From positions 59,119 through 123,118 of the forward strand of contig CALMAH010000038.1 of the NCBI GenBank assembly GCA_937859595.1: a stretch of DNA of 64,000 nt, written 5' to 3'. The position numbers and the translations under genes are program-made. Shown in pieces: positions 17,943-33,529 of this stretch; within the stretch, counting starts at the first letter, position 1; each line of letters starts with the position of its first letter. Below the pieces are notes generated by a model that searched no databases, was not told where the DNA came from, and worked only from the letters and a program-made list of their open reading frames with translations. Origin of the DNA: an uncultured Acidobacteriota bacterium. GTDB lineage: Bacteria > Acidobacteriota > Blastocatellia > Pyrinomonadales > Pyrinomonadaceae.

Positions 17943-19301
17943 TCAGTCCTCCGAAAGAAGTTGGGCCGCGAGAGCCTCAGCCTGCTGCCTTATCTCAGGT
18001 ATTGCGGTCGACTCCCAAAGGATCCCCTTCAGGGCAGTTCCCAAGGTTCGCAGTGCCGGCGATGGGCGGCCCATAGAGTCTAATAAGACCCCGTCGGGTG
18101 TGGCATCGAGCCCGAGCGAGAGTTCATCGCATCTGATAGCGCCTTTGCGGAGAAGACTTTGTATAAGCCTGCTTTCTACGTGACGAAAATTTGCCTGCGA
18201 CCCGATACAATTGAAGATCGCATCCGACTCCAGGTAGTTAATATCGCCGTCGATAACGTGATTGACGAGGAATTTGTCGCCGTCATGTGTGATGTTCCGA
18301 AGCCTGCCTTTCAGTATCCGAAGCCTGCCGCTCTCTTGCATTTCGTCGATCACCGAGGCCGCTCCGGGCGCCATTCTGTGACGAGCCGCATTCCAGTAAC
18401 GGCTTAGGTGCTGCATAAAATAACGCTTTTCGCTTGTCGGCAATCCGAGCCAAAGAGCCTGGGTATGCGGGCGGACGGAGTCGATAACGGCACGCCAGTC
18501 GCTTCCATTTGAAGAAGCGTGGTCGATATGGCGGCGAACACAGGTAAAGATCTCGGTAATGCGTTTTGAACCGTTTAGCTCGCCTATGAAGCTGGGGTAT
18601 TCATACCCAAGCTTGTGTACGGCGGGCAACAGGCCGCGTGTTGAGATCGCTGATATCCTGCCTTTATGCCCATCGGTGTAGAGCCGCAACGCAACATCGA
18701 CCATCGAGAGCCCGGTACCGATGATCAATATCTCATCTGTGTCAGATATGCGTTCGTATGCCTGCGGATCCCATACGTTATGAATATATTTCGGATGGGA
18801 AATGAACTTTAGGTCAGGGACAGTCGGATGGGGCGGCAAAAAATTCCCGAACGCTAACACCACACGAGATGTCTGTATCACCTCGCCCGAAGCAAGCGTT
18901 ACATACGCAGACGAGATGTCGGGCGTTAGGTCAACAACCTCATCATCCACGAGATCCAGCGTTGCATAGCTGCCGAATGTCTTCGAGGTAATGTCCAACA
19001 ACTCTCTAAGATATTTCCCGAAAAGGGCACGGGGTACAAAATCCGTCGGGGCATATTCAAACCCGCCAGCTATGAGCCAATCGTGGAAGTGGCCCGGCTC
19101 CTTTGGAAAAGCGCTCATCTTGGCAGCCGGGACGTTCAAAAGATGGAAGGGGGACTCGGTTGAATACGCGACGCCGCGGCCGACGCTTTTGTGTTTTTCG
19201 ATAAGGTCGATGGTGATCGGTTCACCGCCGCTATTCCTCAGAAGCTGGATGGCGAGGAGCGTTCCGCTAGCTCCGCCGCCGACTATTGTTATTCTCTTCA
19301 A
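17943..19301 (-). CDS. FAD/NAD(P)-binding oxidoreductase (PF13454-like)
   Basis: KRITIVGGGASGTLLA is a Rossmann motif. I prefer the TTG at 19301 because AGGAGGTG lies 8 nt upstream; the ORF track begins at a GTG at 19376. Confidence 0.7.
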   Translation of the reverse strand: MKRITIVGGGASGTLLAIQLLRNSGGEPITIDLIEKHKSVGRGVAYSTESPFHLLNVPAAKMSAFPKEPGHFHDWLIAGGFEYAPTDFVPRALFGKYLRELLDITSKTFGSYATLDLVDDEVVDLTPDISSAYVTLASGEVIQTSRVVLAFGNFLPPHPTVPDLKFISHPKYIHNVWDPQAYERISDTDEILIIGTGLSMVDVALRLYTDGHKGRISAISTRGLLPAVHKLGYEYPSFIGELNGSKRITEIFTCVRRHIDHASSNGSDWRAVIDSVRPHTQALWLGLPTSEKRYFMQHLSRYWNAARHRMAPGAASVIDEMQESGRLRILKGRLRNITHDGDKFLVNHVIDGDINYLESDAIFNCIGSQANFRHVESRLIQSLLRKGAIRCDELSLGLDATPDGVLLDSMGRPSPALRTLGTALKGILWESTAIPEIRQQAEALAAQLLSED

Positions 19302-19605
19302 GATCTGACACCTCCTATTTGTGATCAACAGAAGGCATCGCTGAGACACGAAGAGGTTGTGAAGCACAGTGCCCACAACCTCTTGAGGTTTCGATCAATG
19401 TCCTTCTTCGTTACGCCTACGAGGTTAGCTGACGGGCTGGAAGCGAAGAATCTTTCTCTGCTGCTGCAGATTAGCCCCGGCTTTGCATCGGCAAAGCATC
19501 TGGTTCCCCCGTGTTTTTTTCTCATCGAAAAAAACTTCGGCAATAAAATTTGAATTAGGTTAGCAAATCCGTACAGAAAAAATCAAGGAAATAATCTCCC
19601 TGCTA

Positions 19606-20556: not shown

Positions 20557-21222
20557 CTATTTGAAGAAGGCTATCTGGTTGTCGCGGACGTGATCGGCCA
20601 CCGCCCGGACCGTCTTCATTTCCGAGAGGCGGTAGTTGGCGTCGAGATTGGTGGAAAACCCCTTGCCGGTGTTGGCATAGACCATATTTTCCTGATAGGG
20701 AGCCGTCTTTGCGGGGCATTTGCCGACCACGATGATGTCGATCAGGCCATCGCCATTGAGGTCCTGGAACGCGACGGCCTCTACCCAGCAGCCGGCCGTG
20801 ACGCCGTTAAAGGGTTCGGGAAATTCGTAGATGCGTTTATTGCCGCGATAGATGGCAAATTCGGATTCCATCGGCGGGTCGTCGTACTCGGGGTTGTGGA
20901 CCGTGACAAAACAGGTGCCCTTAAAGGGTTCGAATTCGAGAGCAAAGGTCTGGCTCCGCAGGACGGGAAAGTCGCCCGTATCGGTCTCGTAACAAAGCTC
21001 GCGGGCCGCTTTTGACCCCAGGGCTCCCGCATCTACACGCGAACCGGCGGCCTCGGGCGGCGCGTCGGTCGCGGCGGGTTCCGCAGCGGCACGGTTCTCG
21101 GCCCGCGTATCTTCCGCCGTCCGTCGCCCGTCTGCCGGATCGCCGCACCCCGCCCCCGCCAATGCAAACGCCAATATAACGCTCGCCAAAACAGCCGTCT
21201 TGTATATAGTTGATGTTCTCAT
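20557..21222 (-). CDS. Lipoprotein, hypothetical (one FG-GAP/calcium-loop-like motif)
   Basis: Lipobox LAGAGC after MRTSTIYKTAVLASVILAF, and LNGDGLIDIIVVG. ATG at 21222 is preferred over the longer ORF. Confidence 0.55.
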   Translation of the reverse strand: MRTSTIYKTAVLASVILAFALAGAGCGDPADGRRTAEDTRAENRAAAEPAATDAPPEAAGSRVDAGALGSKAARELCYETDTGDFPVLRSQTFALEFEPFKGTCFVTVHNPEYDDPPMESEFAIYRGNKRIYEFPEPFNGVTAGCWVEAVAFQDLNGDGLIDIIVVGKCPAKTAPYQENMVYANTGKGFSTNLDANYRLSEMKTVRAVADHVRDNQIAFFK

Positions 21223-21754
21223 CAGGCCCGCGCAATTATGCCCACGCCACCCACACGAAGTCAATCGCCCCCGCGGAGTGGCAGTCACGGTCTGTCCGCT
21301 ATCGGCACTAAGGGCCACATCAAACTGCCCGGTACGCGAATCGCGGACATTTGTAGAAGGCCGCGAACCAAAAGCCTTTTGCACATTTCACCGCTGATCG
21401 ACCCGGCGAGACCGCCCGACACACCCCAAGCGAGATAGGAAAGTCCTCCACTTCGACCATAAACCCGGGTCAAAGCCGAGCCACCCCGCGTAGTAAGGAC
21501 ATCCCCGCCAACGGCGGTCACACAACTTTCCGACGGGGCCTCGCGCCCCCAAACGGAAAGCTGTGAATAAGGCAATCCTTTATCGAAGATCCCGGCCAGC
21601 AGTAACAAAAAAAATACCTAAACTAAAATTTTGGATTCAAATCCTCAAGAGCCGCCTAATAGTTTTCGTTTTGCCTTTACAGTAGTCCCCGACGAAAAGC
21701 CTCGTTCTGAACCAATGCAGATGTTCGGTGAAGCGTTTTGCAGAAACAGAAGTT

Positions 21755-21763
21755 TGGGATATA
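21755..21763 (+). promoter_or_regulatory. Possible extended -10 element (TGgGATATA) for the res operon
   Basis: TGn + GATATA lies 25 nt upstream of the ATG at 21788. There is no good -35. Confidence 0.25.
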
Positions 21764-21787
21764 TTTTGTGTCGTTCGAGAAGTTCCC

Positions 21788-24700
21788 ATGAGCGATAACC
21801 CAATACTAAACAACCCATACGACGAGCCTCGGCTACACTATGGTCAAACTTCCGACAATTCCCTGAATTATGAGGATGTGCGGAAAGGCCGCCGAGTATT
21901 TGATCCAAACTCCGAAAGACAACCCAATCCAACGAAAAAGGGAAGACAAAAGAAGCTCGCTTTCCCGATTGAGCCCGAGATCGACGCGGAAAAGCATATT
22001 ATCAATCTGATACGGAAAGAAGTCGGGGCTTGGCGGTCCAACGGATATCCGGAAACAACACGCGTAACAAGCGAATTGCTCCATTATTGGTTCAACGACC
22101 GTGATCGAGAGACCTGGCAACGCCTTTTCTTTGCGCAGCGTGAAGCTGTTGAGACTGCGATATGGCTTAACGAGGTTGCCGAACGATCCAATGCCGGCCA
22201 CAACATCCTTAGAATTTTGCGCGATTCACAATTGACGGTCGGTGATCGAGCCGAAGACCAATTGCCACGCGTCGCCTTCAAAATGGCGACCGGAACAGGT
22301 AAAACTGTGGTCATGGCGACGTTGGTACTTTACCACTTCGCCAATCGCCGGGAATACAAGAACGATGTTCGCTTTGCAGACTACTTTCTTATTATTGCAC
22401 CCGGCGTAACCATTAAGGATCGCTTAGGGGTACTTTTCGTCGACACACGAAACCTTCGTGAATTTGAACTCGAGGATTACTATCATCAAAGACATCTCGT
22501 ACCGCCAAGTCTTCAAGATAGTATCCAGAATCTTAATGCGCGACTTGTGATTACGAACTATCACTCTTTTTTGCCGAAGACGCTCCAGGGAAACAAAAAG
22601 AGTCCGTTCGACGGAAAGACCGATGTTCATGGAAATAAGCTAATAGGCGAAAACAAAGAGGATTTCGGCCTAGTCGTAAAGCGCATACTCGATAAATTCA
22701 AACCCGGAAGCCGTCTCTTAGTGCTAAACGATGAGGCTCACCACTGCTATCTTCCTAAAACGGACAAGAAGACCACCGACAACGAAGAGATAAACGAAAA
22801 TGAACGCGCAGCGGTCTGGTTTACCGGCTTGAGAGAGGTCGCGAAACGCTACAAGGTGCACAGCGTTTATGATCTTTCCGCGACCCCCTACTATCTAAAC
22901 GGATCGGGATATGAACCTTACAGTTTGTTCCCCTGGGTCGTAACTGACTTTGGGTTGATCGAGGCTATCGAGGCAGGCCTTGTTAAGATCCCGTTCCTTT
23001 CGGAGAGCGATAACACACAAGACCTTGACCAACCGTTTTTGGCGAATCTCTACACCCGGATAGTTGAACTAGATAAAAATGCATTCCCCAGAAAAGGACA
23101 GAGAAGAACGAGAGCACAAGCTAATCAAGAAGGCGTGATTCTTTCAGAAGCTCCACCAAAGCTTCCGCCGCAACTCCTTTCTGCCTTCGATATGTTCTAC
23201 AGGAACTACATAGATTACGCGAAAGGTGAAAGGCAAAGGCTTGAGGCTAGGCGCGATCTCTTCACGCCACCGCCGGTTTTTATCGTCGTTTGTAATAATA
23301 CGACCGTTTCTAAAGAGGTCTACAAATATCTTGCCGGGTATGAGTTTCACAATGGCGACGGTGAAATTCAGACCGTACCGGGAGCGAAAGAGCAGTTCAG
23401 CAACTACGACCAGAACGGAAGGCCAAAAAAGAGGCCACCGACTCTACTCATTGACAGCGACGCATTAGAGAATTCTGACCAGATCAATGACGACTTCAAG
23501 AAGATATTTGTTGAAGAGATCAAAGAGTTTCGCAAGGATTATACGCGGGTTCACGGGCAAGGAAGTGCGGAAAATATATCGGATGCCCAAATACTCCGCG
23601 AGGTCGTAAACACGGTCGGACAACAAGGAAAGTTGGGACAGGATATTCGATGTGTTGTCTCCGTTTCGATGCTCACCGAGGGTTGGGACGCCAACACTGT
23701 TACGCACATCGTTGGCGTGCGAGCATTTGGTTCGCAGCTTCTTTGCGAACAGGTTGCGGGTCGTGCTCTTCGCCGTGTGAGCTACATTCTTCAAGGCTAT
23801 GATAAGGACGGCGAACCGACGGAGGATAAGAGGAAGATCGTATCTCAGAAATTCCCTCCGGAATACGCACATATTATCGGGATACCGTTCAAGCTGTTCA
23901 AAGGCGGAAAAGCTGCACCGGCTCCGAATCCGGTTGAGACAACTCAGATCAAAGCGCTAAAGGAAAAAGAAGAACTAGAGATCACTTTCCCGAACGTAGA
24001 TGGCTATCGAATAGACACTGCTGGAAACAAACTCGAAGCAAATTTCGATGACCTCGAACCATTTGAAATAGACGGGACTAAAATTCCCGTAGAAACGATC
24101 ATGGGAAATGCAATCTCTCCTACTGAGATCAAGATGGGCATCGAACAGGTTCTCGAACGCCGCGAAGGAGAACTTATCTACTGGATCACAAAGGAAGTGA
24201 TCCGCCACAAATACTCGGACGACGACGGCAATCCGCAATTCCGTTACTTCGGCGACCTAAAAGGAATCGTAACTCGCTGGTACAACGAGCGGGTGAAGGT
24301 AATAGGAATTGCAGGAAGGGATTATCGCAAGCTTTTGTTCTTTCTCGACGGTAAAACCATTGCGTCTCACATCGTACGAGCGATAAACACGCATGAGAAC
24401 AATTCTGAATTTATTCGGCCCGTTCTGAACCACTACAATCCATTTGGGAGCACCCGGCATGTTCGCGGCGTAACAACAAAGCCGGTCTGGGAAACGGCGA
24501 AGTCTCATGTGAATTACGTCGTCGAAGACAGCGGTTGGGAAGGTATCGCCGCGAAAGCTCTTGATGAAATGGAGATCATCAGCTACGTAAAGAACAGCTT
24601 TCTAGAATTCCGAATACCATATATCAAGGACGGCGAAGAAGCGGGCTATTATCCTGATTTTATTATTCGAGCGAACGGCAAAGACGGAAAACCCATAAAT

Positions 24701-24892
24701 CTTATCCTCGAAGTTACAGGCTCAAACAAGAAACATAAGGCCGAAAAGAAATGGTACACCGAGAACAGATGGATTCCGGCGGTTAATGCCGTCCGAGAAA
24801 AACACGGAATGGATGAATGGCGCTACATTGAGATCCGGGATGATATACGGGATTTCAAGAATGAGATTCTACAAGAAATAACGACAATCTAA
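21788..24892 (+). CDS. res: Type III-like restriction enzyme Res subunit (SF2 helicase plus C-terminal PD-(D/E)xK-like nuclease)
   Basis: MATGTGKT (motif I), LNDEAHH (DEAH), SATP and QVAGRALRR (motif VI). C-terminal YYPDFII...ILEVTG nuclease-like motif. The start is at MSDNPILNNPYDEP. Confidence 0.85.
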   Translation: MSDNPILNNPYDEPRLHYGQTSDNSLNYEDVRKGRRVFDPNSERQPNPTKKGRQKKLAFPIEPEIDAEKHIINLIRKEVGAWRSNGYPETTRVTSELLHYWFNDRDRETWQRLFFAQREAVETAIWLNEVAERSNAGHNILRILRDSQLTVGDRAEDQLPRVAFKMATGTGKTVVMATLVLYHFANRREYKNDVRFADYFLIIAPGVTIKDRLGVLFVDTRNLREFELEDYYHQRHLVPPSLQDSIQNLNARLVITNYHSFLPKTLQGNKKSPFDGKTDVHGNKLIGENKEDFGLVVKRILDKFKPGSRLLVLNDEAHHCYLPKTDKKTTDNEEINENERAAVWFTGLREVAKRYKVHSVYDLSATPYYLNGSGYEPYSLFPWVVTDFGLIEAIEAGLVKIPFLSESDNTQDLDQPFLANLYTRIVELDKNAFPRKGQRRTRAQANQEGVILSEAPPKLPPQLLSAFDMFYRNYIDYAKGERQRLEARRDLFTPPPVFIVVCNNTTVSKEVYKYLAGYEFHNGDGEIQTVPGAKEQFSNYDQNGRPKKRPPTLLIDSDALENSDQINDDFKKIFVEEIKEFRKDYTRVHGQGSAENISDAQILREVVNTVGQQGKLGQDIRCVVSVSMLTEGWDANTVTHIVGVRAFGSQLLCEQVAGRALRRVSYILQGYDKDGEPTEDKRKIVSQKFPPEYAHIIGIPFKLFKGGKAAPAPNPVETTQIKALKEKEELEITFPNVDGYRIDTAGNKLEANFDDLEPFEIDGTKIPVETIMGNAISPTEIKMGIEQVLERREGELIYWITKEVIRHKYSDDDGNPQFRYFGDLKGIVTRWYNERVKVIGIAGRDYRKLLFFLDGKTIASHIVRAINTHENNSEFIRPVLNHYNPFGSTRHVRGVTTKPVWETAKSHVNYVVEDSGWEGIAAKALDEMEIISYVKNSFLEFRIPYIKDGEEAGYYPDFIIRANGKDGKPINLILEVTGSNKKHKAEKKWYTENRWIPAVNAVREKHGMDEWRYIEIRDDIRDFKNEILQEITTI

Positions 24893-24896
24893 CAGA

Positions 24897-26660
24897 ATGG
24901 CATTTCAAACCCCAATAACCATTAAAGAAGCCGTCGATAATATTCGGAGAAGGAAATACCTACTTCCTTCTATCCAGAGAAAGCTCGTTTGGAATTCTGG
25001 GCAGATCGAAAGGCTTTTTGATTCCTTGATGCGAGACTATCCCATCGGGTCATTTCTCTTTTGGCATGTTGATCGCGAACGTCTCAACGACTTCACGTTC
25101 TATGAATTCATCAAGGATTATCACGAACGTGACAACCGAAACAACGCCAAGGCGGATCCGATCAGCGACTCGGATATTACGGGCATTCTCGACGGTCAGC
25201 AGCGGCTTACGTCCCTTTATATCGGCCTTTTTGGTTCTTACGCTGAGAAAGAAAAGTCTAAGCGATGGGACAACGACAAGGCGTTTCCCAAACGCTTTCT
25301 GCATTTGAATCTTCTGAAAGGCTACACAGAAGATGAAAACGATCTTGAACTTGCGTATGATTTTTATTTCATGACCGAGGAAGAGGCTAGGGAGAACCGT
25401 ACCGACGACCCTGAGAACTTCTTTTGGTTTAGGGCCAGCGATATATTCACGTTTAAGAGCCACGGCGACATCGGTTCATTTTTGATGAGGGAGATCTCGC
25501 AAACCGCTGACCCTGAAAAGGCCCAATTTGCGAACGACACTCTTTTCAAGTTCTACTCTCTTGTTAACGACCGCCCGGTAATCAATTTTTTCCTCGAAAA
25601 GAATGGTGATCTTGATAAGGTGCTGAACATCTTTGTACGCGTGAACAGCGGCGGAACCCAACTAAGCTACGCAGACCTATTGCTATCGATTGCATCTGCA
25701 AGTTGGAACAAGCTGGATGCTCGCGAAGAGATCACTAATTTTGTCGAGGAAATTTCCGATCAGGGGACTGGATTTCGATTTAGTCAGGATTTCGTACTGA
25801 AGTCCGCCTTAGTGCTTTCTGACCTGCCAAACATCCAATTCAAGGTTAACAATTTTAACAACGCCAATATGCGGACCATCGAGGAAAATTGGGGGACGAT
25901 GTGCGATGCTATCAGACTGGCGGTTAACCTCGTTGAATCCTTCGGATATACACGCGAAACGCTGAGCTCCAATTACGCACTCATACCGATCGCTTATTAT
26001 TTGTTGAAAAAAGGAAACCCGCCCAACTTTGTTGAGTCGGCGAATTTTCTGAGCGACCGCCAAAACATCCGCAAATGGTTGATCGCATCACTCTTAAAAC
26101 GCGCGTTTGGCGGTCAGCCGGACACGGTTCTTAGACCGATCCGTCAGATACTGCAAAGGGATTCCGGAGCCTTCCCGATCGATGCGATAGTTGATGAGTT
26201 CAAGGGAAAAAATAAATCTATCGTTTTCACTGACGATGATATTTCTGCCCTTTTCGATCATTATTACGGAAGCCAATACACCTTTTCTACCCTGGCGGTC
26301 TTTTACCCGACCCTCGACTTTAAGAACAAATTTCACGTTGACCATATCTTCCCGAAGAGCCTGTTCAAAAGAAAGAACCTCCTTAATCGAGGAATAAGCG
26401 AACCAGACGCCGATGTGTTTATGGAGAACGTTGACTACCTCGCAAATCTTCAACTTCTCGAGGGGATTCCTAATATGGAAAAATCCAACAAGGAATTCAA
26501 GGACTGGCTCGAAGAGGCTTATCCTGATAAAGATGCGAGACGAGCATATATGGAAAGGAACTACATCCCCGACGTTGATCTTAGCCTTGAGAATTTTGGC
26601 GAGTTTTTTGAAGAAAGAACTAAATTGATGACAAGCAGATTTGCTCAATTGATCAAGTAA
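24897..26660 (+). CDS. GmrSD-family protein (DUF262 ParB-like NTPase plus DUF1524 His-Me nuclease)
   Basis: [20 protein letters not shown] and DGQQRLTS are DUF262 motifs. C-terminal HVDHIFPKS ... [15 protein letters not shown] is DUF1524/HNH-like. It starts 4 nt after the res stop. Confidence 0.85.
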
Positions 26661-26686
26661 GATTTGATTCTCGTGCAAAGCGAATT

Positions 26687-29317
26687 ATGACCAAGAAGAT
26701 CGACAGCATTGAGCATAAGGAAGAGAAGCGGGCATATATTCCCAGCAAGGAAGAGGCGGGGTTTGAGGATGCGAATCCGCATGTTCGGCAAGGGAAAAGG
26801 ACTCTTGAGCTTCCCGTTAATCCGGTCGTGACCCGCGGGCAGGACCCGGAATTGTTCTGGATGAACAAATACGGGAATGACGACCGCGAAGAGCTTTTGC
26901 GTGTAGATATTCGTTCGCTTTATCGCCACGAACATATTGAGCCGGAAACGCTGATCAGAAATCTTTACCGAATAACCGAGGACACAGAGGACCCGCAGGG
27001 CGATATCTTTGGCGAGATACCCGAAGCTTTCAAGGACATGATCGAACGTGACGATCTGGAGAAAGTTGCGGGATATTACGAACATAGTGACAAATGGAGA
27101 AATCGCCTAATTCAAGGCGACAGCCATTTGGTAATGGCGAGCCTTCTGGAAAGAGAAGGAATGGCCGGAAAGGTCCAAATGATCTATGTCGATCCGCCCT
27201 ATGGGATCAAATACGGATCTAACTGGCAGATCAAGCTAAATAATCGAGATGTGAAAGACGGAAGCGACGATCACCTGACCGGAGAACCCGAGGTCATCAA
27301 GGCATTTCGGGATACATGGGAACTCGGTATTCATTCCTATCTTTCATACATCCGCGACCGGCTGCTGATAGCAAAAGAACTCCTAACCGAAAGCGGAAGC
27401 TGTTTTGTCCAGATATCCGATGAGAATGTACATTTGGTTAGGAACGTGATGGATGAGGTTTTTGGAAGTGGTAACTTCTGTGGATTAATTCCATTCAAAA
27501 AGACTACCGGTTTCGGCTCGGAACTGATCGATTCGACCTACGATTTCCTTCTCTGGTATGCGAAAGCCAAGGAATCAGTGAAGTACCGAACTCTATATTT
27601 AGACCGCCCGCCCGACAAGACCGCAAGCGCATATAGCTGGATTAAGGAAACAAATGGAACATACCGGCGTCTAAAAAAGAGCGACTTCGATGATGCGGGA
27701 AACATCATTGTGGATCACGACTTTAGGTTCAGCACTTCGAGTCTTATGTCGTCTGGTGAATCTGAAAAGGGCTCGCAGCCGTTTGTTTTTGAAGGCAAGG
27801 AATACCGCCCCGCAAAGGGAACGCATTGGAAGACTCATCAGAAGGGGTTAAACAAATTGGCTGAAACAGGCCGTCTTATAGGAGTCAAAAATACGCTGGC
27901 CTACATACGAAAGGAAAACGACTTCCCTCTGGTAACTTTCGACAACGTTTGGAATGACACGCTCCAGAGTACATTTGCAATTGAAAAGCTCTACGTCGTT
28001 CAGACTACTTTAAAGGTCCTCCAGCGGTGTATTCTCATGACAACAGATCCAGGTGATTTGGTATTTGACCCGACTTGTGGAAGTGGAACAACTGCCGTTG
28101 TTTCGGAGCAATTCGGGCGTCGCTGGATTACGATTGACACAAGCCGAATCGCATTAAACATCGCCAAGACGCGTCTGATGACTGCAACGCTGCCGTACTA
28201 CAAACTTTACGACGAGACGGCAAAGGATATTCGGCAAGGATTTGTTTACAAGACAGTTCCTCACATTACCTTGAAGTCCCTCGCGAATGACGAGCCGCCC
28301 GCGACCGAGACGCTCTATGACAAACCGGAGATAGACACAAAGAGAATGCGGGTCAGCGGGCCTTTTACGGTCGAGACTTTGCAAAATTTTGAACCTGTCT
28401 TGCCCGAAGAAATAGCCGAAGAAACAATGGTCAGCGGCGAGAGCTTTGAGCAGATCATCAAAGACCATCTGCTTGCTACCGGAATCAAGAATGGCCGCAA
28501 AGATGAGCAGGTAATGTTCTCCCGCGTCGAAATACTTGCCGGCGAACGCCTTCACGCCGAAGGTTTTTATCAGAACGGCGTCGGAGAAAAGAAAGCCTAT
28601 TTCCACATCGGCCCGAAGTTCGGCACAGTCAGCAAGAAAGCCGTTAATGAAGCGATCCGGGAATGCCAATCCCGCGGAGATGCCCAATGGCTTGTAATTC
28701 TCGGATTTAGTTTTGAGAGCGACATAGAGGGCGGCACGCATACGACATCAATGGGTAATTTCGAAGTAACCCGCGCCCGCATCCATGATGATCTTTTACA
28801 GGAAGGCCTAAAGAAAAAACCGGCTAAGTCCGCCGCCTCTTTCGTGACCATAGGCGAACCGGATATTGTGCTCGTGTCAGAATCTACCACCCCGTCAGGC
28901 GAAGCGGCTGACACCCCTCCTATCCAGAAGGGGAGCTTTATGCAGGTCGAGATCAGAGGCCTCGATATCTACGACCCTATCAAGGACGAAGTTAAAGCCC
29001 GCGATCTTCACGATATCGCCTACTGGATGGTGGACGACAATTACGACGGATCGAACTTTATCGTCCGGCAGGTCTTCTTCTGTGGCGGCGACAAAGACGA
29101 GTTCGCCAAATGGAAAAAAGGCCTCGACACACTGGCCAAAGACAAAACCCGCAAACGCGCCGAGAAAACCCTAAAGATAGAAATAGACGAAGAAGCCTTT
29201 GACCGAATCTACGGCCACACTTCGCACCCAATAAAAATAAAAAACGAAGGCCAAAAGATCGCCGTAAGAGTAATCAGCCAATACGGCGAAGAATCAACGA
29301 AGGTCCTTACTGTTTAA
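26687..29317 (+). CDS. mod: Beta-class N6-adenine (DPPY) DNA methyltransferase, Type III Mod-like, with a long C-terminal extension
   Basis: [15 protein letters not shown] (motif IV) precedes [13 protein letters not shown] (motif I), which is the beta-class order. About 400 aa follow motif I. Confidence 0.9.
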
Positions 29318-29323
29318 ACCAAG

Positions 29324-30382
29324 ATGCAGCCTATAAGTGAATACAATTCCGTCGACGAACTTCCATCTTACGAGGAGATTGTTGAATATTTGCGAAAGAA
29401 GAATCGGCCGAGACATCTCTTGGTTGGGAATGGCTTTAGCATGGCTTACGACAGAGACATCTTTTCGTATAATGCACTCGCGCAGTTTGTCGATAACCTA
29501 GAGGATCAGCTTTTGAAGGATCTTTTTACGGCCGTGAATACAAAGAACTTTGAACAGGTAATGCAGCAACTGGAGAGCTTTTCAGAAATCGCTAGGGTTT
29601 TCGGAGCCGATTCGCAACTCATCCAACGGATTGCCGACGCCAGCGACTCCCTGAAGCGGAGCCTCCTAAATGCTGTCAAAGAGCTCCATCCCGAGCATGT
29701 ATTCAAAATTTCACGGGAAAAAAGCGCAAAGTGCGCTCAGTTTCTTTCGGGCTTCCTCGGAAGCGGCGGTACTATCTTCACGACAAATTATGATCTTCTG
29801 CTTTACTGGGTCTTAATGAGAAACGGTTTAGACAATAAAGATGGATTCGGCCGTGAACCACTCAATCCTGGCGTTTGGGAAGACGAGCCCGAGTATTCCG
29901 AACTTAGATGGGGTCTCAACAGTGACCATCAAAATGTGTTTTATTTGCACGGCGCCCTGCACATTTTTGATACTGGTACAGAAATCGAAAAAGAAGAATA
30001 CGACAATGCCCATTACCTTCTCGAAAAAGTTAAGGAGCGGATAGACGACGAGGATTACCCGATATTTGTAACAGCAGGAACAGCCCAACAAAAGATGGTA
30101 CATATCCGACATAATCGCTATCTGTCCTTTTGTTATGATGCTTTGGAACAGATCCGAGGATCACTTATAGTTTTTGGATTCGGCTTCGGACAATACGACA
30201 CTCATATCATCGACGCGATAAATAAGGCAGCGCTTCATGGTGCCAAAGGCACCGAAAAACTTCACAGTATATATGTCAGCATTAGAACGAACGAAAGCCT
30301 TGAGTATCTGAAGTCGATCGAAGATCGATTTCAACTCAAAGTGAACGGATTTCAGTCGGACACTGCGTGCGTCTGGGAGTGA
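29324..30382 (+). CDS. SIR2-like (DUF4917-type) protein, predicted NAD+-consuming effector
   Basis: LLVGNGFS (aa 32-39), IFTTNYDLL (aa 151-159), YLHGALH (aa 207-213) and LIVFGFGFGQYDTHI (aa 281-295) match the GAGxS / TTNYD / hG / GySl-D signatures of prokaryotic SIR2_2-type proteins. It starts 6 nt after the mod stop. Confidence 0.7.
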   Translation: MQPISEYNSVDELPSYEEIVEYLRKKNRPRHLLVGNGFSMAYDRDIFSYNALAQFVDNLEDQLLKDLFTAVNTKNFEQVMQQLESFSEIARVFGADSQLIQRIADASDSLKRSLLNAVKELHPEHVFKISREKSAKCAQFLSGFLGSGGTIFTTNYDLLLYWVLMRNGLDNKDGFGREPLNPGVWEDEPEYSELRWGLNSDHQNVFYLHGALHIFDTGTEIEKEEYDNAHYLLEKVKERIDDEDYPIFVTAGTAQQKMVHIRHNRYLSFCYDALEQIRGSLIVFGFGFGQYDTHIIDAINKAALHGAKGTEKLHSIYVSIRTNESLEYLKSIEDRFQLKVNGFQSDTACVWE

Positions 30383-30397
30383 TGGGCGGGTAGCGGG

Positions 30398-31453
30398 TCA
30401 CAACGCACCGTCCGTCTTCAACAAAGTAAGCAATTGAGCCCGCCGGTCTTTCCAGTGCCGGTCGGAGGTTTCCGTCTCAATAAAAGTAAGTAGCGCTTCG
30501 CGTTTTTCTTCGTCAATCTCATTCACATGATTTTCGAGTAGACCAATGAGAAAATCACATACATCGTCGTCCGCTATTATCCAGTTGACTTGAGAATTGT
30601 TAATATAAGCATCGATGAGATCATTTGCATCATTTACGTCAAAGCTATCGATTTTTGAAAGCGTGCGGATCGTTCCATGGGTCTGAGCAAAAGTCCCACT
30701 TCCCGCTAGATCATTGATTAATAATTGTTTTTCAAGTTCACTCGCGAGCAGAATTTGAGGGAAGTGTTCTTGGAGGAAAGAAGATATTCGTTTATAAAGA
30801 AACATTTCACCGCCGACCTTGGATGTCCATTCATCGCGGAGAAATTGATGAGCGGTTTGATCCCGAAACCCGCTCTCCCAGTCTTGGTCGTACGAAATGA
30901 GATGAAGATTATAATTCGAATCTAGATACTCGTTTACGAACGGGCTATCTCTTACTCTAGCCAGAAGTAGTTCCCAGTTAATCTCGTCGCCTAGAGGATC
31001 CGTCCGTTTTCCAGGGGGATTCCCTACATCACGGCGGACTCTCGCGTTACTGAATGCCAGACTGGTGGTTGCAATCAGTTCGGCTGAACTAAAGATTTGC
31101 TCAATCACCTGGTCCGCAACCAAATTCCGCGCTCGCATATCCTCTTCGATTCGGCTCAAGAGTTGATTCTTTGCTTTCTCGTAATCTTTTTTTCCCGAAA
31201 TTAGGTCGCTATACTCGTCGTAGCCTTTAATTAGTTGCGGAAAGGGCGGAAAGTCCTTTTTTCTGAATTCAATAATAGTATTAGCGATCTTACTGTCACG
31301 ATTCCTTCGAAACTCTGAGATCACCTGATCGGTTACCAGCAACTGGATTTTGCGCGATTTAATAAGAACATCGATTTTCCTAAGTTCCTCCAAATCCTCA
31401 TTAGAGAAATCAAAGAAATCGAGGTAAATATTTGTGTCAATAAAAATATTCAA
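30398..31453 (-). CDS. PIN-like domain protein (DUF4935-like N-terminus) with an uncharacterised C-terminal half
   Basis: N-terminus (M)NIFIDTNIYLDFF ... LLVTDQVISEF is PIN-like. TTG start with AGGAG 8 nt upstream. It is convergent with the SIR2-like gene across a 15-nt gap. Confidence 0.65.
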   Translation of the reverse strand: MNIFIDTNIYLDFFDFSNEDLEELRKIDVLIKSRKIQLLVTDQVISEFRRNRDSKIANTIIEFRKKDFPPFPQLIKGYDEYSDLISGKKDYEKAKNQLLSRIEEDMRARNLVADQVIEQIFSSAELIATTSLAFSNARVRRDVGNPPGKRTDPLGDEINWELLLARVRDSPFVNEYLDSNYNLHLISYDQDWESGFRDQTAHQFLRDEWTSKVGGEMFLYKRISSFLQEHFPQILLASELEKQLLINDLAGSGTFAQTHGTIRTLSKIDSFDVNDANDLIDAYINNSQVNWIIADDDVCDFLIGLLENHVNEIDEEKREALLTFIETETSDRHWKDRRAQLLTLLKTDGAL

Positions 31454-31618
31454 CGTTTCAGCTCCTGAGGGCCCAATATGAGATAGAATCGATTTAACAA
31501 TTTATCAATTAAGCGTTGAAACTATCAAACTGAAGTGAGTTTGGATAATTTGTTCACGGCTACTCAGGGTTTCGCGTTGCGGTTGAAAAGGGCGTAAATT
31601 CGGCGGTTAAGTGCTTGA

Positions 31619-31849
31619 TCTGGTATTTTTGACCTTTTAAAGCGCGAACAGCAGGAATTCGTCGACTTTGTCCTTTCGAAGTACGTAGAATCGGGCGTTG
31701 ACGAACTCGACGATGGAAAGCTCCCGCAACTGCATCAACTCAAATATGACTCGCTCGAAGATGGAGTTAATATTCTAGGCGATGTCGCCAGGATAAGATC
31801 GACCTTCATCAACTTTCAGAAACACCTTTACGAGACAAGGCCGGTCTGA
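31619..31849 (+). pseudogene. Remnant of a Type I restriction enzyme HsdR C-terminus (EcoEI_R_C-like)
   Basis: In-frame translation reads ..KREQQEFVDFVLSKYVESGVDELDDGKLPQLHQLKYDSLEDGVNILGDVARIRSTFINFQKHLYETRPV*. There is no start codon and no helicase part, and a stop sits immediately upstream at 31616. Confidence 0.55.
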
Positions 31850-32181
31850 GGAAATAGTCCCTGCCGGTCGCGTGTCTGCCTGTTCGGCCAAACGGTCCGG
31901 GTACGGCGACTGGTGCACCAGGTTTTTGAGCGAATCGGGATGGAAAGACAGAGCCATTCCGCAAATAGGGGCGCAAAGGCGAATTAAAAGATAGAAGGAT
32001 AAGGAATAAAGAGAAGAAGGAACCACGAAACACTAAAATGCCCTAAATGGAGGGAAGGCGGATAGCGGACAGTTGATAGCAATCAGCGGTCGGCTTTCAG
32101 CAGTCAGTAGTCAGCCGTTGATGGGAACGGGCGGCGGTTTTGTGCTGCGGGTGGGCGTAGGGTGGTCGTTTTTCGGTGGTT

Positions 32182-32325
32182 GGCGGTTCGGGCGCGGGGT
32201 TTGGGGTGCGGTTGGGGTGCGGGTCGGGTGCGGAAGCGGGGCGGCGAAGGGTTTTCGGCGCGTAGGATTACGCGACCCCCGCGGCGATATTGCTGAAAAG
32301 CCTGTAAATATGGGGGTTGGGCGTG
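32182..32325. repeat. G-rich direct repeat, copy 1
   Basis: Starts GGCGGTTCGGG and ends with a 24-nt block identical to copy 2 (GAAAAGCCTGTAAATATGGGGGTT). The core is roughly 80 percent identical by eye. Confidence 0.6.
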
Positions 32326-32487
32326 ATATTGTGTTGTTAGGGTGGCGATAGTTGGCGATCTTTCGTGGTTAGGAGGCCTAATTTCGCGGAAATCCGGTCC
32401 GCATTCATTGGGTTTCAGAAGCATCTGTACGATAAACGTGTGGCCTGATAGCTGCCGAACACGGTTTGGGTATTCGGTAGAGTTTCG

Positions 32488-32907
32488 ATGCGTATGACAA
32501 AGAACCGAGAGATGGCCGAAACAAGGCCGTTGGTAACGATCAGTCGGGGGCCGTGTCTTGGGACGTGTCCGGTTTATTCGGCGGAGATCTATTCGGATGG
32601 GACCGTGGTTTATGTCGGGGAGATGTTTGTAGAGGTTGTGGGCGTGCGGCGGCACAGGATATCTGAAGCGAAGGTGCGAGAGTTGATCCGGGCGTTTGAA
32701 AAGGCGGATTATTTTTCGTTGAAGAGTGTTTACACGGCGGAGATAACTTGTCTGCCTACGACGGTCACCAGTTTTGAATGGGAGGGGCGGCGAAAGTCGG
32801 TGAAGAATTATTTCGGCGCTCCGAGAAAGCTTGAAAGGCTAGAGAACGCGATCGACCGTATTGCGGGGTTGAAGGAACTGATAGGAGATCAGGAGTGGGC
32901 GGGATGA
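32488..32907 (+). CDS. Small Cys-motif protein (C-x-G-x-CP-x-Y, DUF6438-like)
   Basis: 139-aa ORF with ISRGPCLGTCPVYSAEIYSDGTVVY. The family assignment is from memory only. Confidence 0.45.
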   Translation: MRMTKNREMAETRPLVTISRGPCLGTCPVYSAEIYSDGTVVYVGEMFVEVVGVRRHRISEAKVRELIRAFEKADYFSLKSVYTAEITCLPTTVTSFEWEGRRKSVKNYFGAPRKLERLENAIDRIAGLKELIGDQEWAG

Positions 32908-32972
32908 CTGACGAGTGACGTGTCGGGAAGCGTATGAGTGTGCCGTTTGTTGAGCATGATGTGGGGTTGGGG

Positions 32973-33105
32973 GGCGGTTCGGGAGGCGGTTCGGCACCGG
33001 TTCGGCCTCGGAAGGGGGGCGGCAAAGGCTTTTGGGTGTGTAAAATTACGCGGCTGGGGGGCGGTATTGCGGAAAAGCCTGTAAATATGGGGGTTTGGGG
33101 TGGTT
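32973..33105. repeat. G-rich direct repeat, copy 2
   Basis: Same GGCGGTTCGGG start and the same AAAAGCCTGTAAATATGGGGG block as copy 1. It abuts the 21-bp array. Confidence 0.6.
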
Positions 33106-33122
33106 TTGGGCGGCGGGAGGTG

Positions 33123-33450
33123 GGCTGACAAAGCCCGTGGGAAGTGTTCCCAAGCCTTTGGGAAGTGTTCCCAAGCTCTTGAGAAGTGTTCTCAAGCCCT
33201 TGAGGAGTGTTCCCAAGCCCTTGAGAAGTGTTCCCAAGTCCTTGAGAAGTGTTCCCGAGCCCTTGAGTAGCGTTCCCAAGCTCTTGAGTAGCGTTCCCAA
33301 GCCCTTGAGAAGTGTTCCCAAGTCCTTGAGAAGTGTTCCCAAGCTCTTGAGAAGTGTTCCCAAGCCTTTGAGAAGTGTTCCCGAGCCTTTGAGAAGCGTT
33401 CCCAAGCCTTTGAGTAGCGTTCCCAAGCCCTTGAGAAGTGTTCCCAAGCC
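33123..33450. repeat. Tandem array of a 21-bp dyad-symmetric unit (consensus GTGTTCCCAAGCCCTTGAGAA), 14 full copies plus partial units at both ends
   Basis: Exact 21-nt phasing from 33144 to 33437, with a 13-nt partial unit at 33438-33450 and a degenerate unit before 33144. Each unit contains TTCCCAAG-CC-CTTGAGAA, whose arms are 7/8 complementary. Confidence 0.9.
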
Positions 33451-33529
33451 GATTTCCGGCGTGCATATCGGCTCCGGAAGCGTAGAGATCTACTTCTGAA
33501 AAAAAATCTCTCGAATGTGAAAAAAGTTC

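Follow-up and report, generated by a model that had tools for sequence, protein, structure and literature searches.

The DNA considered here (the window) is a stretch of 64,000 nucleotides (nt) from an uncultured Acidobacteriota bacterium of the Pyrinomonadaceae (contig CALMAH010000038.1, assembly GCA_937859595.1), and the element in question is a four-gene operon at positions 21788-30382, in which a restriction endonuclease gene (res), a gene for a GmrSD-type enzyme, a DNA methyltransferase gene (mod) and a DUF4917 gene for a SIR2-like protein follow one another. The locus is best read as an instance of the "embedded defence" already described in other systems, with no new four-part immune system. 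It probably consists of an ordinary restriction-modification (RM) core with a BrxU-type enzyme in an internal slot and a DUF4917 protein in a trailing slot, co-transcribed and functionally separable. An earlier note, made on the letters of the DNA alone, had offered stacked independent systems as a fallback, and this option is now favoured by the turnover of cargo among related loci and by the lack of DUF4917 co-occurrence with the related res genes.

The four genes are:

21788..24892, plus strand: res, BPTD_3080-family restriction endonuclease by sequence, 1034 amino acids (aa); NCBIfam NF046055, Pfam ResIII, motifs
24897..26660, plus strand: brxU-type GmrSD Type IV enzyme by sequence, 587 aa, cargo between res and mod; Pfam GmrSD_N/GmrSD_C, PADLOC HEC-05, PDB 7P9K
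26687..29317, plus strand: mod, beta-class DPPY N6_N4 DNA methyltransferase by sequence, 876 aa; Pfam N6_N4_Mtase, PADLOC MTase_III PDLC03632
29324..30382, plus strand: DUF4917 SIR2-like gene, 352 aa, cargo 6 nt after mod; Pfam DUF4917, PADLOC PDC-S21, predicted fold

The four open reading frames (ORFs) lie on the same strand, contain zero internal stops and are separated by spacers of exactly 4, 26 and 6 nt, as given by the ORF table and by reading of the junctions. No terminator-like hairpin was found in the operon junctions, and all ten such sites within 21000-32500 fall inside ORFs, fewer than the 14.7 expected from shuffling. The layout and the absence of junction hairpins reported in the earlier note were thus confirmed, and the four genes are very likely a single transcript.

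The res-mod pair and its cargo positions

The product of gene 1 matched the NCBIfam profile NF046055 with 1016.8 bits (equivalog cut-off 800), residues 23-1049 of the long ORF aligning to positions 2-968 of 970, and by this match it is a BPTD_3080-family restriction endonuclease. The mechanically called ORF begins at a GTG (21728), which was rejected as the true res start on the profile and the homologue alignment; ATG 21788 is the likely start, because the profile aligns only from residue 23 of the long ORF and the methionine encoded there (M1) is invariant among homologues. The motifs I, II and VI and the C-terminal nuclease-like motif named in the earlier note were all recovered (GTGKT at residue 169, DEAH at 315, QVAGRALR at 655, and YYPDF...LILEVTGSNKK near the C-terminus), and the helicase motifs, together with D957, E975 and K984 of the C-terminal motif, are invariant in 18 homologues. 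Res would accordingly combine a superfamily 2 (SF2) helicase/translocase with a C-terminal PD-(D/E)xK-like nuclease, the latter assigned from motif conservation and the alpha/beta pattern only. Its description as Type III Res-like held for the SF2 ResIII motifs (Pfam ResIII, 43.1 bits) and failed for a canonical Type III Res: Pfam PF19778 (RE_endonuc) gave no match in Res at E <= 0.01, whereas the canonical Type III Res of two comparison loci (L116 and L152) match it at ~1e-33. Scores on the PADLOC REase_III models reached only ~20-24 bits; PADLOC was used here only as a hidden Markov model scan of proteins. No sequence relative of Res was found in the PDB, even by a profile search with the Res alignment, and an AlphaFold model built with 18 homologues was poor (predicted local distance difference test, pLDDT, 48.6), only residues ~900-1034 being reasonably confident.

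Gene 3 is, by its sequence relatives, the Type III-like Mod partner of Res. The Pfam domain N6_N4_Mtase covers residues 163-494, with DPPY at 169 and FDPTCGSGT at ~440-450; the protein scored 578.5 bits on PADLOC MTase_III PDLC03632, in keeping with its earlier description as a Mod-like DPPY methyltransferase, and its nearest PDB relatives are the Type III Mods 6K0W and 4ZCF. The C-terminal ~340 aa of Mod (28290-29317, residues ~535-876) carry no Pfam domain, yet the family conserves them even in relatives with 38-41% identity, since the tblastn homology runs up to residue 876 in most loci. This extension may be a Res-docking or an additional DNA-binding module.

The behaviour of the pair was followed in a non-random sample, namely the best-scoring 80 of the at least 593 genome loci of the family (at least 7,929 database matches) found by a search with the Res alignment, plus five metagenome loci holding the closest Res homologues; ORFs were called mechanically. 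Six further Res loci (L170-L175) were included later; 92 related Res loci were examined overall. Mod lay downstream of Res on the same strand in 62/62 non-redundant loci where a Mod was found, from many phyla, and the res-first order, regarded as unusual in the earlier note, is therefore the normal order for BPTD_3080 Res/Mod. The identities of Res and Mod to the window proteins co-varied (Pearson r = 0.96, n = 53 loci), and since this correlation accompanies a same-strand Mod in every one of the 62 loci, Res and Mod can be regarded as a co-evolving pair. Most Res loci without Mod were contigs ending shortly after Res. There were four exceptions, three with 10 kb of downstream sequence each (L015, L040 and L043) and one with 4.3 kb (L053); in L040 and L043 the Res match is itself truncated. 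L015 (721-13804) holds a complete Res homologue at 56% identity with no detectable Mod in the 10 kb downstream, and represents either a very large embedded cargo block or a solitary res.

The gap between Res and Mod ranged from -1 to 2758 nt: it was 250 nt or less in 30/62 loci, and 350-2758 nt, with an inserted gene, in the other 32. Because those 30 loci carry no insert, the pair appears self-sufficient; a GmrSD-type gene between res and mod, as in the window, had been listed as an unusual feature, and with 32 of the loci carrying an insert, and BrxU known as an embedded guest, it no longer qualifies as such. Among the ORFs inserted between Res and Mod, 36/42 were on the same strand as both, and they were mostly unique to their locus. 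They included PIN, MazF/PemK, DUF5131 (PDC-M41B/M30B), GmrSD (HEC-05/HEC-06, at least two subfamilies), DUF3800, ORF6N/KilA-N, Fic, Schlafen, HD, zeta toxin and HNH families. Co-oriented genes directly after Mod encoded GmrSD, Shedu SduA, ZorA/B, HEC-01A, RhuM, AbiGi and other proteins, some of them non-defence. The BPTD_3080 family would in this way have a pair of cargo hot spots, the first separating res from mod and the second immediately behind mod.

Each of the five closest Res relatives (81-85% identity) carried a cargo set of its own, shared neither with the other four nor with the window (x, other ORF):

Res-DUF3800-Mod-GmrSD, the GmrSD being of a different subfamily (HEC-06-like)
Res-x-x-Mod-trypsin, on an integrase-bearing element
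Res-x-DUF7565-Mod-DUF805
Res-Mod-x-TPR
Res-Mod-NA37

At the level of sequence the pattern looks like a stable two-gene system whose two slots exchange their cargo rapidly. A tyrosine integrase and an HTH_17 gene stand upstream of one close Res-Mod relative (L171, 161-5860), and HTH_17 and DUF3854 genes downstream of another (L170, 17697-21567); these apparent mobile elements suggest how the RM cassette spreads.

Searched with tblastn, the 92 related Res loci, L170-L175 included, yielded no DUF4917 homologue. The Pfam and PADLOC summaries of cargo cover the 25 commonest families, so a single distant SIR2 among the cargo of other loci could escape them; a true DUF4917 member would be caught by tblastn, since the top 120 matches of that family are 54-69% identical across phyla.

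The BrxU-type and DUF4917 genes

Gene 2 is by alignment a full-length BrxU homologue. Its single polypeptide carries both GmrSD_N (112.4 bits) and GmrSD_C (28.5 bits) over the Pfam cut-offs, it scored 737.8 bits on PADLOC HEC-05, and residues 3-582 align with residues 2-574 of BrxU (PDB 7P9K) over the full length with 454.8 bits; the motifs DGQQR (at 99), DHI (482) and NLQLL (517, HNH region) are present. The earlier assignment to the DUF262/DUF1524 enzymes of GmrSD/BrxU type holds on both domains, and HEC-05 has been equated with BrxU by the PADLOC authors (bioRxiv 10.1101/2024.01.29.577857). BrxU has been reported, in reviews and primary papers, to act independently of its host BREX system, and GmrSD-like genes to be frequent guests inside RM, BREX and Hma systems. 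BrxU itself, a characterised stand-alone Type IV enzyme, is known from within BREX, Hma and Type I RM loci. Lying between res and mod, co-oriented with both and having homologues outside BPTD_3080 systems, gene 2 corresponds to the definition of an embedded defence gene.

The closest BrxU homologue (72%) again has a Res (66%) on one side and a Mod (70%) on the other, both of the BPTD_3080 family, in L175, where the gene directly after Mod is convergent and is not DUF4917. The Res frame of this locus (3-1364) is broken into ORFs 132-935 and 1026-1364, yet tblastn gives one segment, 3-1352; either this res is a pseudogene or the contig, of 3.7x coverage, contains an error. Homologues of BrxU at 68% identity were found closing a Type I RM cluster and, on an element that carries an integrase, next to an unrelated methyltransferase, from which it follows that BrxU is not confined to the BPTD_3080 family. 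The co-occurrence of the two guests with this res-mod family, proposed as a check in the earlier note, was in sum borne out once for BrxU, in L175, and not for DUF4917, given the 92 Res loci and the different cargo of the five closest relatives; the missing co-occurrence that the note had named as refuting its idea was thus largely observed.

The product of gene 4 matched Pfam DUF4917 (PF16263) with 159.6 bits against a cut-off of 28, residues 32-351 covering positions 1-311 of 311 of the profile; the match to Pfam SIR2_2 was marginal (25.2 bits, cut-off 24.5) and that to NCBIfam SIR2_antiphage far under the cut-off (18.7 bits vs 500). It scored 369.1 bits on PADLOC PDC-S21, a candidate family, so the SIR2-like gene after mod, which the earlier note had counted as an unusual feature, corresponds to an entry already catalogued. 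The motifs GNGFS (35-39), TNYD (154-157, with N155 and D157) and H209-G210 are invariant in 24 homologues. The AlphaFold model was of moderate quality (pLDDT 72), with the segment 188-258, including the putative catalytic H209, partly of low confidence. In Foldseek searches of the PDB its top matches were the SIR2 subunits of SIR2-HerA, followed by KomC and DSR2 (E 1e-7 to 4e-4, probability 1.00); over the defence SIR2 proteins, SPARSA included, E ranged from 1e-7 to 1e-3 with a TM-score of only ~0.45, and against sirtuin deacetylases (SIRT2) E was only ~0.07-0.1. A PDB profile search with the DUF4917 alignment found no sequence relative. The earlier view of gene 4 as SIR2-like, with N155 and H209 as its key residues, agrees with these family, fold and motif results, and the protein is most likely a nicotinamide adenine dinucleotide (NAD+)-consuming SIR2-type effector, as judged from fold and motifs only.

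Taken separately, each component of the operon has a database identity by sequence (NF046055, MTase_III, HEC-05/BrxU and PDC-S21). In the scheme that we favour, the conserved core of a horizontally acquired islet would be a two-gene, Type III-like BPTD_3080 RM system, res then mod. As in their families, Mod would methylate adenines at the recognition sites of the host, and Res would use an ATP-driven SF2 motor and a PD-(D/E)xK nuclease to cut unmethylated incoming DNA. By homology to characterised BrxU, whose family is marked by NTP-stimulated cleavage of DNA with modified cytosines, the product of gene 2 may cut phage DNA with 5-methylcytosine (5mC), 5-hydroxymethylcytosine (5hmC) or glucosyl-5hmC, which escapes ordinary restriction, while from its fold and motifs DUF4917 could give an NAD+-based response to some trigger. 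The layering would be genetic, i.e., of co-location and co-expression, and not that of one molecular machine.

Separable modules or coupled effector

Some of our observations weigh against the reading as stacked modules. The tight spacing of the four genes (4, 26 and 6 nt) is equally expected of an integrated system. The Res-BrxU-Mod trio of L175 indicates that this combination is not a one-off and may be co-inherited, and the enrichment of RM genes beside DUF4917, together with its co-divergence with two RM lineages, hints at something beyond random stacking. The scope of the Res survey, limited to the best-scoring loci with mechanical ORF calls, also counts on this side.

The alternative that survives best treats DUF4917 as an RM-coupled backup effector or guard comparable to PrrC, silent while RM works and draining NAD+ once a phage has disabled or escaped restriction, its position after mod being functional and BrxU still independent; we regard it as unlikely, although not negligible. 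In a wider form of this reading, which we hold equally unlikely, DUF4917 would be a fail-safe tied to RM systems in general, firing when the RM system beside it is evaded or inhibited. The neighbourhoods of DUF4917 itself, examined in the best-scoring 80 of at least 339 metagenome loci (homologues 51-59% identical, a non-random sample), bear on it. Upstream of DUF4917 were found HsdS (10 loci), HsdM/N6_Mtase (4-5), canonical Type III Res with ResIII and RE_endonuc (7) and N6_N4_Mtase (4), and downstream HSDR_N/T1R_D3 in 5. Confirmed architectures included hsdM-hsdS-DUF4917-(other gene)-hsdR (L135, L145), mod-res-DUF4917 (L116) and mod-DUF4917-res (L152). With the window included, the RM classes that have DUF4917 inside them or added to them number at least three, unrelated to one another (Type I, canonical Type III and BPTD_3080). 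Its linkage to RM is recurrent, co-oriented and co-diverging, down to 55-70% identity, with two of these lineages: Res identities of 86-91% correspond, in the Type III lineage, to 80-95% for DUF4917 (55% and 61%, respectively, in L152), and in the Type I lineage HsdR identities of 69-89% correspond to 69-83%. The closest DUF4917 homologue (69%), which is turned towards an McrBC system, begins directly (1 nt) behind a Type I hsdM. SliP of Campylobacter jejuni, the sole DUF4917 protein that we found studied, is also encoded in an operon with Type I hsdR (PMC10421069), and PrrC provides a precedent for an RM-embedded guard (PMC12707154).

Several features of the same loci speak against such a guard. 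Partners drawn from at least three unrelated RM families make a specific protein-protein interaction unlikely; an RM gene stands within two ORFs of DUF4917 in only about a quarter to a third of the sampled loci, and several of the RM-linked contigs are near-duplicates (L116/L118/L125; L145/L146). The other neighbours are ordinary defence-island genes (AbiEii, Schlafen, reverse transcriptase, DUF4276, Mrr, McrBC). No RM-type Pfam domain was detected among the neighbours in L167, nor in the 2.3 kb lying downstream in L169, where the upstream sequence is limited to 127 nt. DUF4917 was absent from every other BPTD_3080 locus examined, and conversely no BPTD_3080-type Res/Mod stood beside a homologue in the 80 sampled DUF4917 loci. 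Physical linkage on a mobile cassette could moreover explain the co-divergence.

Two large proteins accompany DUF4917 inside Type I RM systems. A 1063-aa protein without Pfam match directly follows it in L135 (10341-13532) and L139 (2930-6121), and in L145 (11029-15486; also L146) the start of a 1485-aa NOV_C-domain protein overlaps its stop codon. They could be partners of DUF4917 or additional guests.

Far less probable than the guard is a single integrated four-component system, in which Res senses foreign DNA and licenses the SIR2-like effector, with the GmrSD enzyme as an obligatory subunit. The operonic spacing and four intact frames would suit such a system, as would the recurrence, once, of the Res-BrxU-Mod trio in L175, where however a convergent gene takes the place of DUF4917 after Mod. 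We place this model very low because the four-gene set occurs nowhere else among the loci examined and because in half of its relatives the pair suffices by itself; in addition, BrxU is reported to work alone. The proposal of the earlier note that a Res sensor licenses SIR2 finds no support, since DUF4917 is missing from the 92 related Res loci and Res relatives as close as 81-85% identity hold five different cargo sets.

It is equally improbable that DUF4917 has no defence role here and is a passively carried, SliP-like sirtuin protein deacetylase: although SliP is reported to have this activity (PMC10421069) and SIR2 catalytic motifs alone cannot separate a deacetylase from an NADase, the model is much closer to SIR2 proteins of the defence NADase kind (E 1e-7 to 1e-3) than to SIRT2 (~0.07-0.1), DUF4917 neighbourhoods are dominated by RM and defence genes, and the host is a soil-type Acidobacteriota metagenome-assembled genome without a eukaryotic host to target.

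On the reading as an RM core with separable cargo, the locus suggests that a very abundant, res-first, Type III-like RM family carries swappable defence cargo, as Hma, BREX and Type I systems do. Literature searches by the names BPTD_3080 and PDC-S21 found no paper, and we found no earlier description of BPTD_3080 Res/Mod as a host of embedded cargo; the family, poorly covered by the PADLOC REase_III models, would thus be a new hunting ground for guilt-by-embedding searches. Type III-like restriction and a BrxU-type enzyme would jointly cover unmodified and cytosine-modified phage DNA, and DUF4917 emerges as a SIR2-like candidate with persistent linkage to several RM classes. A four-part machine would have meant a new defence architecture, and the comparative evidence speaks against it.

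The islet, its surroundings and comparison with known systems

Three further features belong to the region of the operon:

21737..21765, plus strand: candidate operon promoter TTTGCA-17-TATATT, 23 nt 5' of the res ATG; weak, 9/12 consensus match
30398..31453, minus strand: PIN_12-domain gene, 351 aa, convergent and outside the operon; Pfam PIN_12, 52.8 bits
21400..31500, no strand: low-GC defence islet, ~10 kb, edges approximate; contrast in guanine-plus-cytosine (GC) content with the flanks

One promoter probably serves all four genes of the operon; sites resembling promoters numbered 17 in the region vs 12.5 +/- 3.8 by chance, with no excess. GC content was 0.43-0.49 in the five genes between 21788 and 31453 vs 0.51-0.61 in the flanking genes, and 0.45-0.49 along the islet vs 0.54-0.60 in the flanks. 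The flanking genes encode DAGK/YegS, an FG-GAP protein and a peptidase S46, and since the GC content of the five genes lies below that of these housekeeping-type neighbours, the islet appears to have been horizontally acquired. Neither a tRNA gene nor att-like flanking direct repeats were found at its edges, nor an integrase in the part of the window examined, and megablast of 21500-32000 against complete Escherichia coli genomes and PLSDB plasmids returned zero matches.

The PIN_12 gene (GC 0.429) is tail to tail with the DUF4917 gene, 15 nt past its stop codon, and is possibly a further defence or toxin gene of the islet. Its product gave a partial match to PADLOC PDC-S34 (44.7 bits), limited to C-terminal residues 238-314.

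To the left of the islet, a c-di-AMP riboswitch (19399-19552, minus strand; Rfam RF00379 over the full model, 68.3 bits, E 1e-13) is found immediately upstream of a minus-strand gene (17943-19376) for an FAD-NAD(P)-binding (NAD_binding_9) protein, an unusual-looking target. To the right, the stretch 32185-33512 is G-rich, repetitive and apparently non-coding, and coincides with a strong GC skew (0.23-0.26). It contains a 21-nt tandem array of ~15 copies (33131-33450), 11-nt GGGGTGCGG-like repeats (32185-32245 and 32951-33023) and a repeat of 49 nt that is present at both 32283 and 33060, the two copies being 88% identical and 777 nt apart. No Rfam family matching the stretch was found.

Membership in several named systems was considered and rejected. 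No TIR, HerA, Piwi or APAZ domain occurs in the five islet proteins, which sets the locus apart from Thoeris, SIR2-HerA, DSR and SIR2-pAgo; as regards DSR, gene 4 encodes only 352 aa and no DSR2 C-terminal domain. Hma (helicase-methylase-ATPase), whose three genes HmaA/B/C include a separate ATPase, was discarded likewise, the operon having no ATPase gene and no Hma model appearing among the six PADLOC matches of Res or the best 25 of the 52 of Mod.

Individual components are nonetheless close to known ones. In its predicted fold gene 4 comes nearest to SIR2-HerA (Nezha), DSR2, Thoeris ThsA, SPARSA and KomC, and the motifs GxGxS, TxNxD and HG are conserved. Within PDC-S21/DUF4917, gene 4 shares with SliP and many homologues its place in an operon with RM genes, whereas SliP has been studied as a secreted effector with reported sirtuin deacetylase activity (PMC10421069) and not as a defence protein. 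PrrC of the Type IC system EcoprrI is likewise a latent toxic effector encoded inside an RM operon, and in this respect the model for the guard reading, but it belongs to a family (ABC ATPase plus anticodon nuclease) unrelated to DUF4917.

With the canonical Type III systems (EcoP15I/EcoP1I, 4ZCF) the core shares two genes, a beta-class DPPY Mod and a Res that combines the SF2 motifs of ResIII with a nuclease at its C-terminus. The canonical enzymes cleave in an ATP-dependent manner as a Mod2Res complex, which requires two unmethylated sites in inverse orientation. It differs from them in the order, res then mod vs mod then res, in a Res that lacks PF19778 and has a different PD-(D/E)xK-like motif, and in the extra ~340 aa at the C-terminus of Mod. 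Gene 2 aligns end to end with BrxU of Escherichia fergusonii pEFER (7P9K/7P9M) and keeps the DUF262 DGQQR and DUF1524 HNH-region motifs, but it is divergent, with many substitutions in the alignment, and sits in a Type III-like RM system instead of BREX.

The closest parallel for the locus as a whole is embedded defence, described in Hma, BREX and DISARM as well as in Type I RM (Payne et al., bioRxiv 10.1101/2024.01.29.577857); TgvAB, for example, lies inside the Type I RM of Vibrio cholerae VPI-2 (PMC11411939). The host in the window, a BPTD_3080 res-first RM system, is outside the four hosts of Payne et al., and its second guest, DUF4917, is appended after mod and not nested. The likeness lies in an unrelated, co-oriented gene nested in a methylation-based system, in GmrSD-like genes being among the commonest guests, and in a guest that varies by locus.

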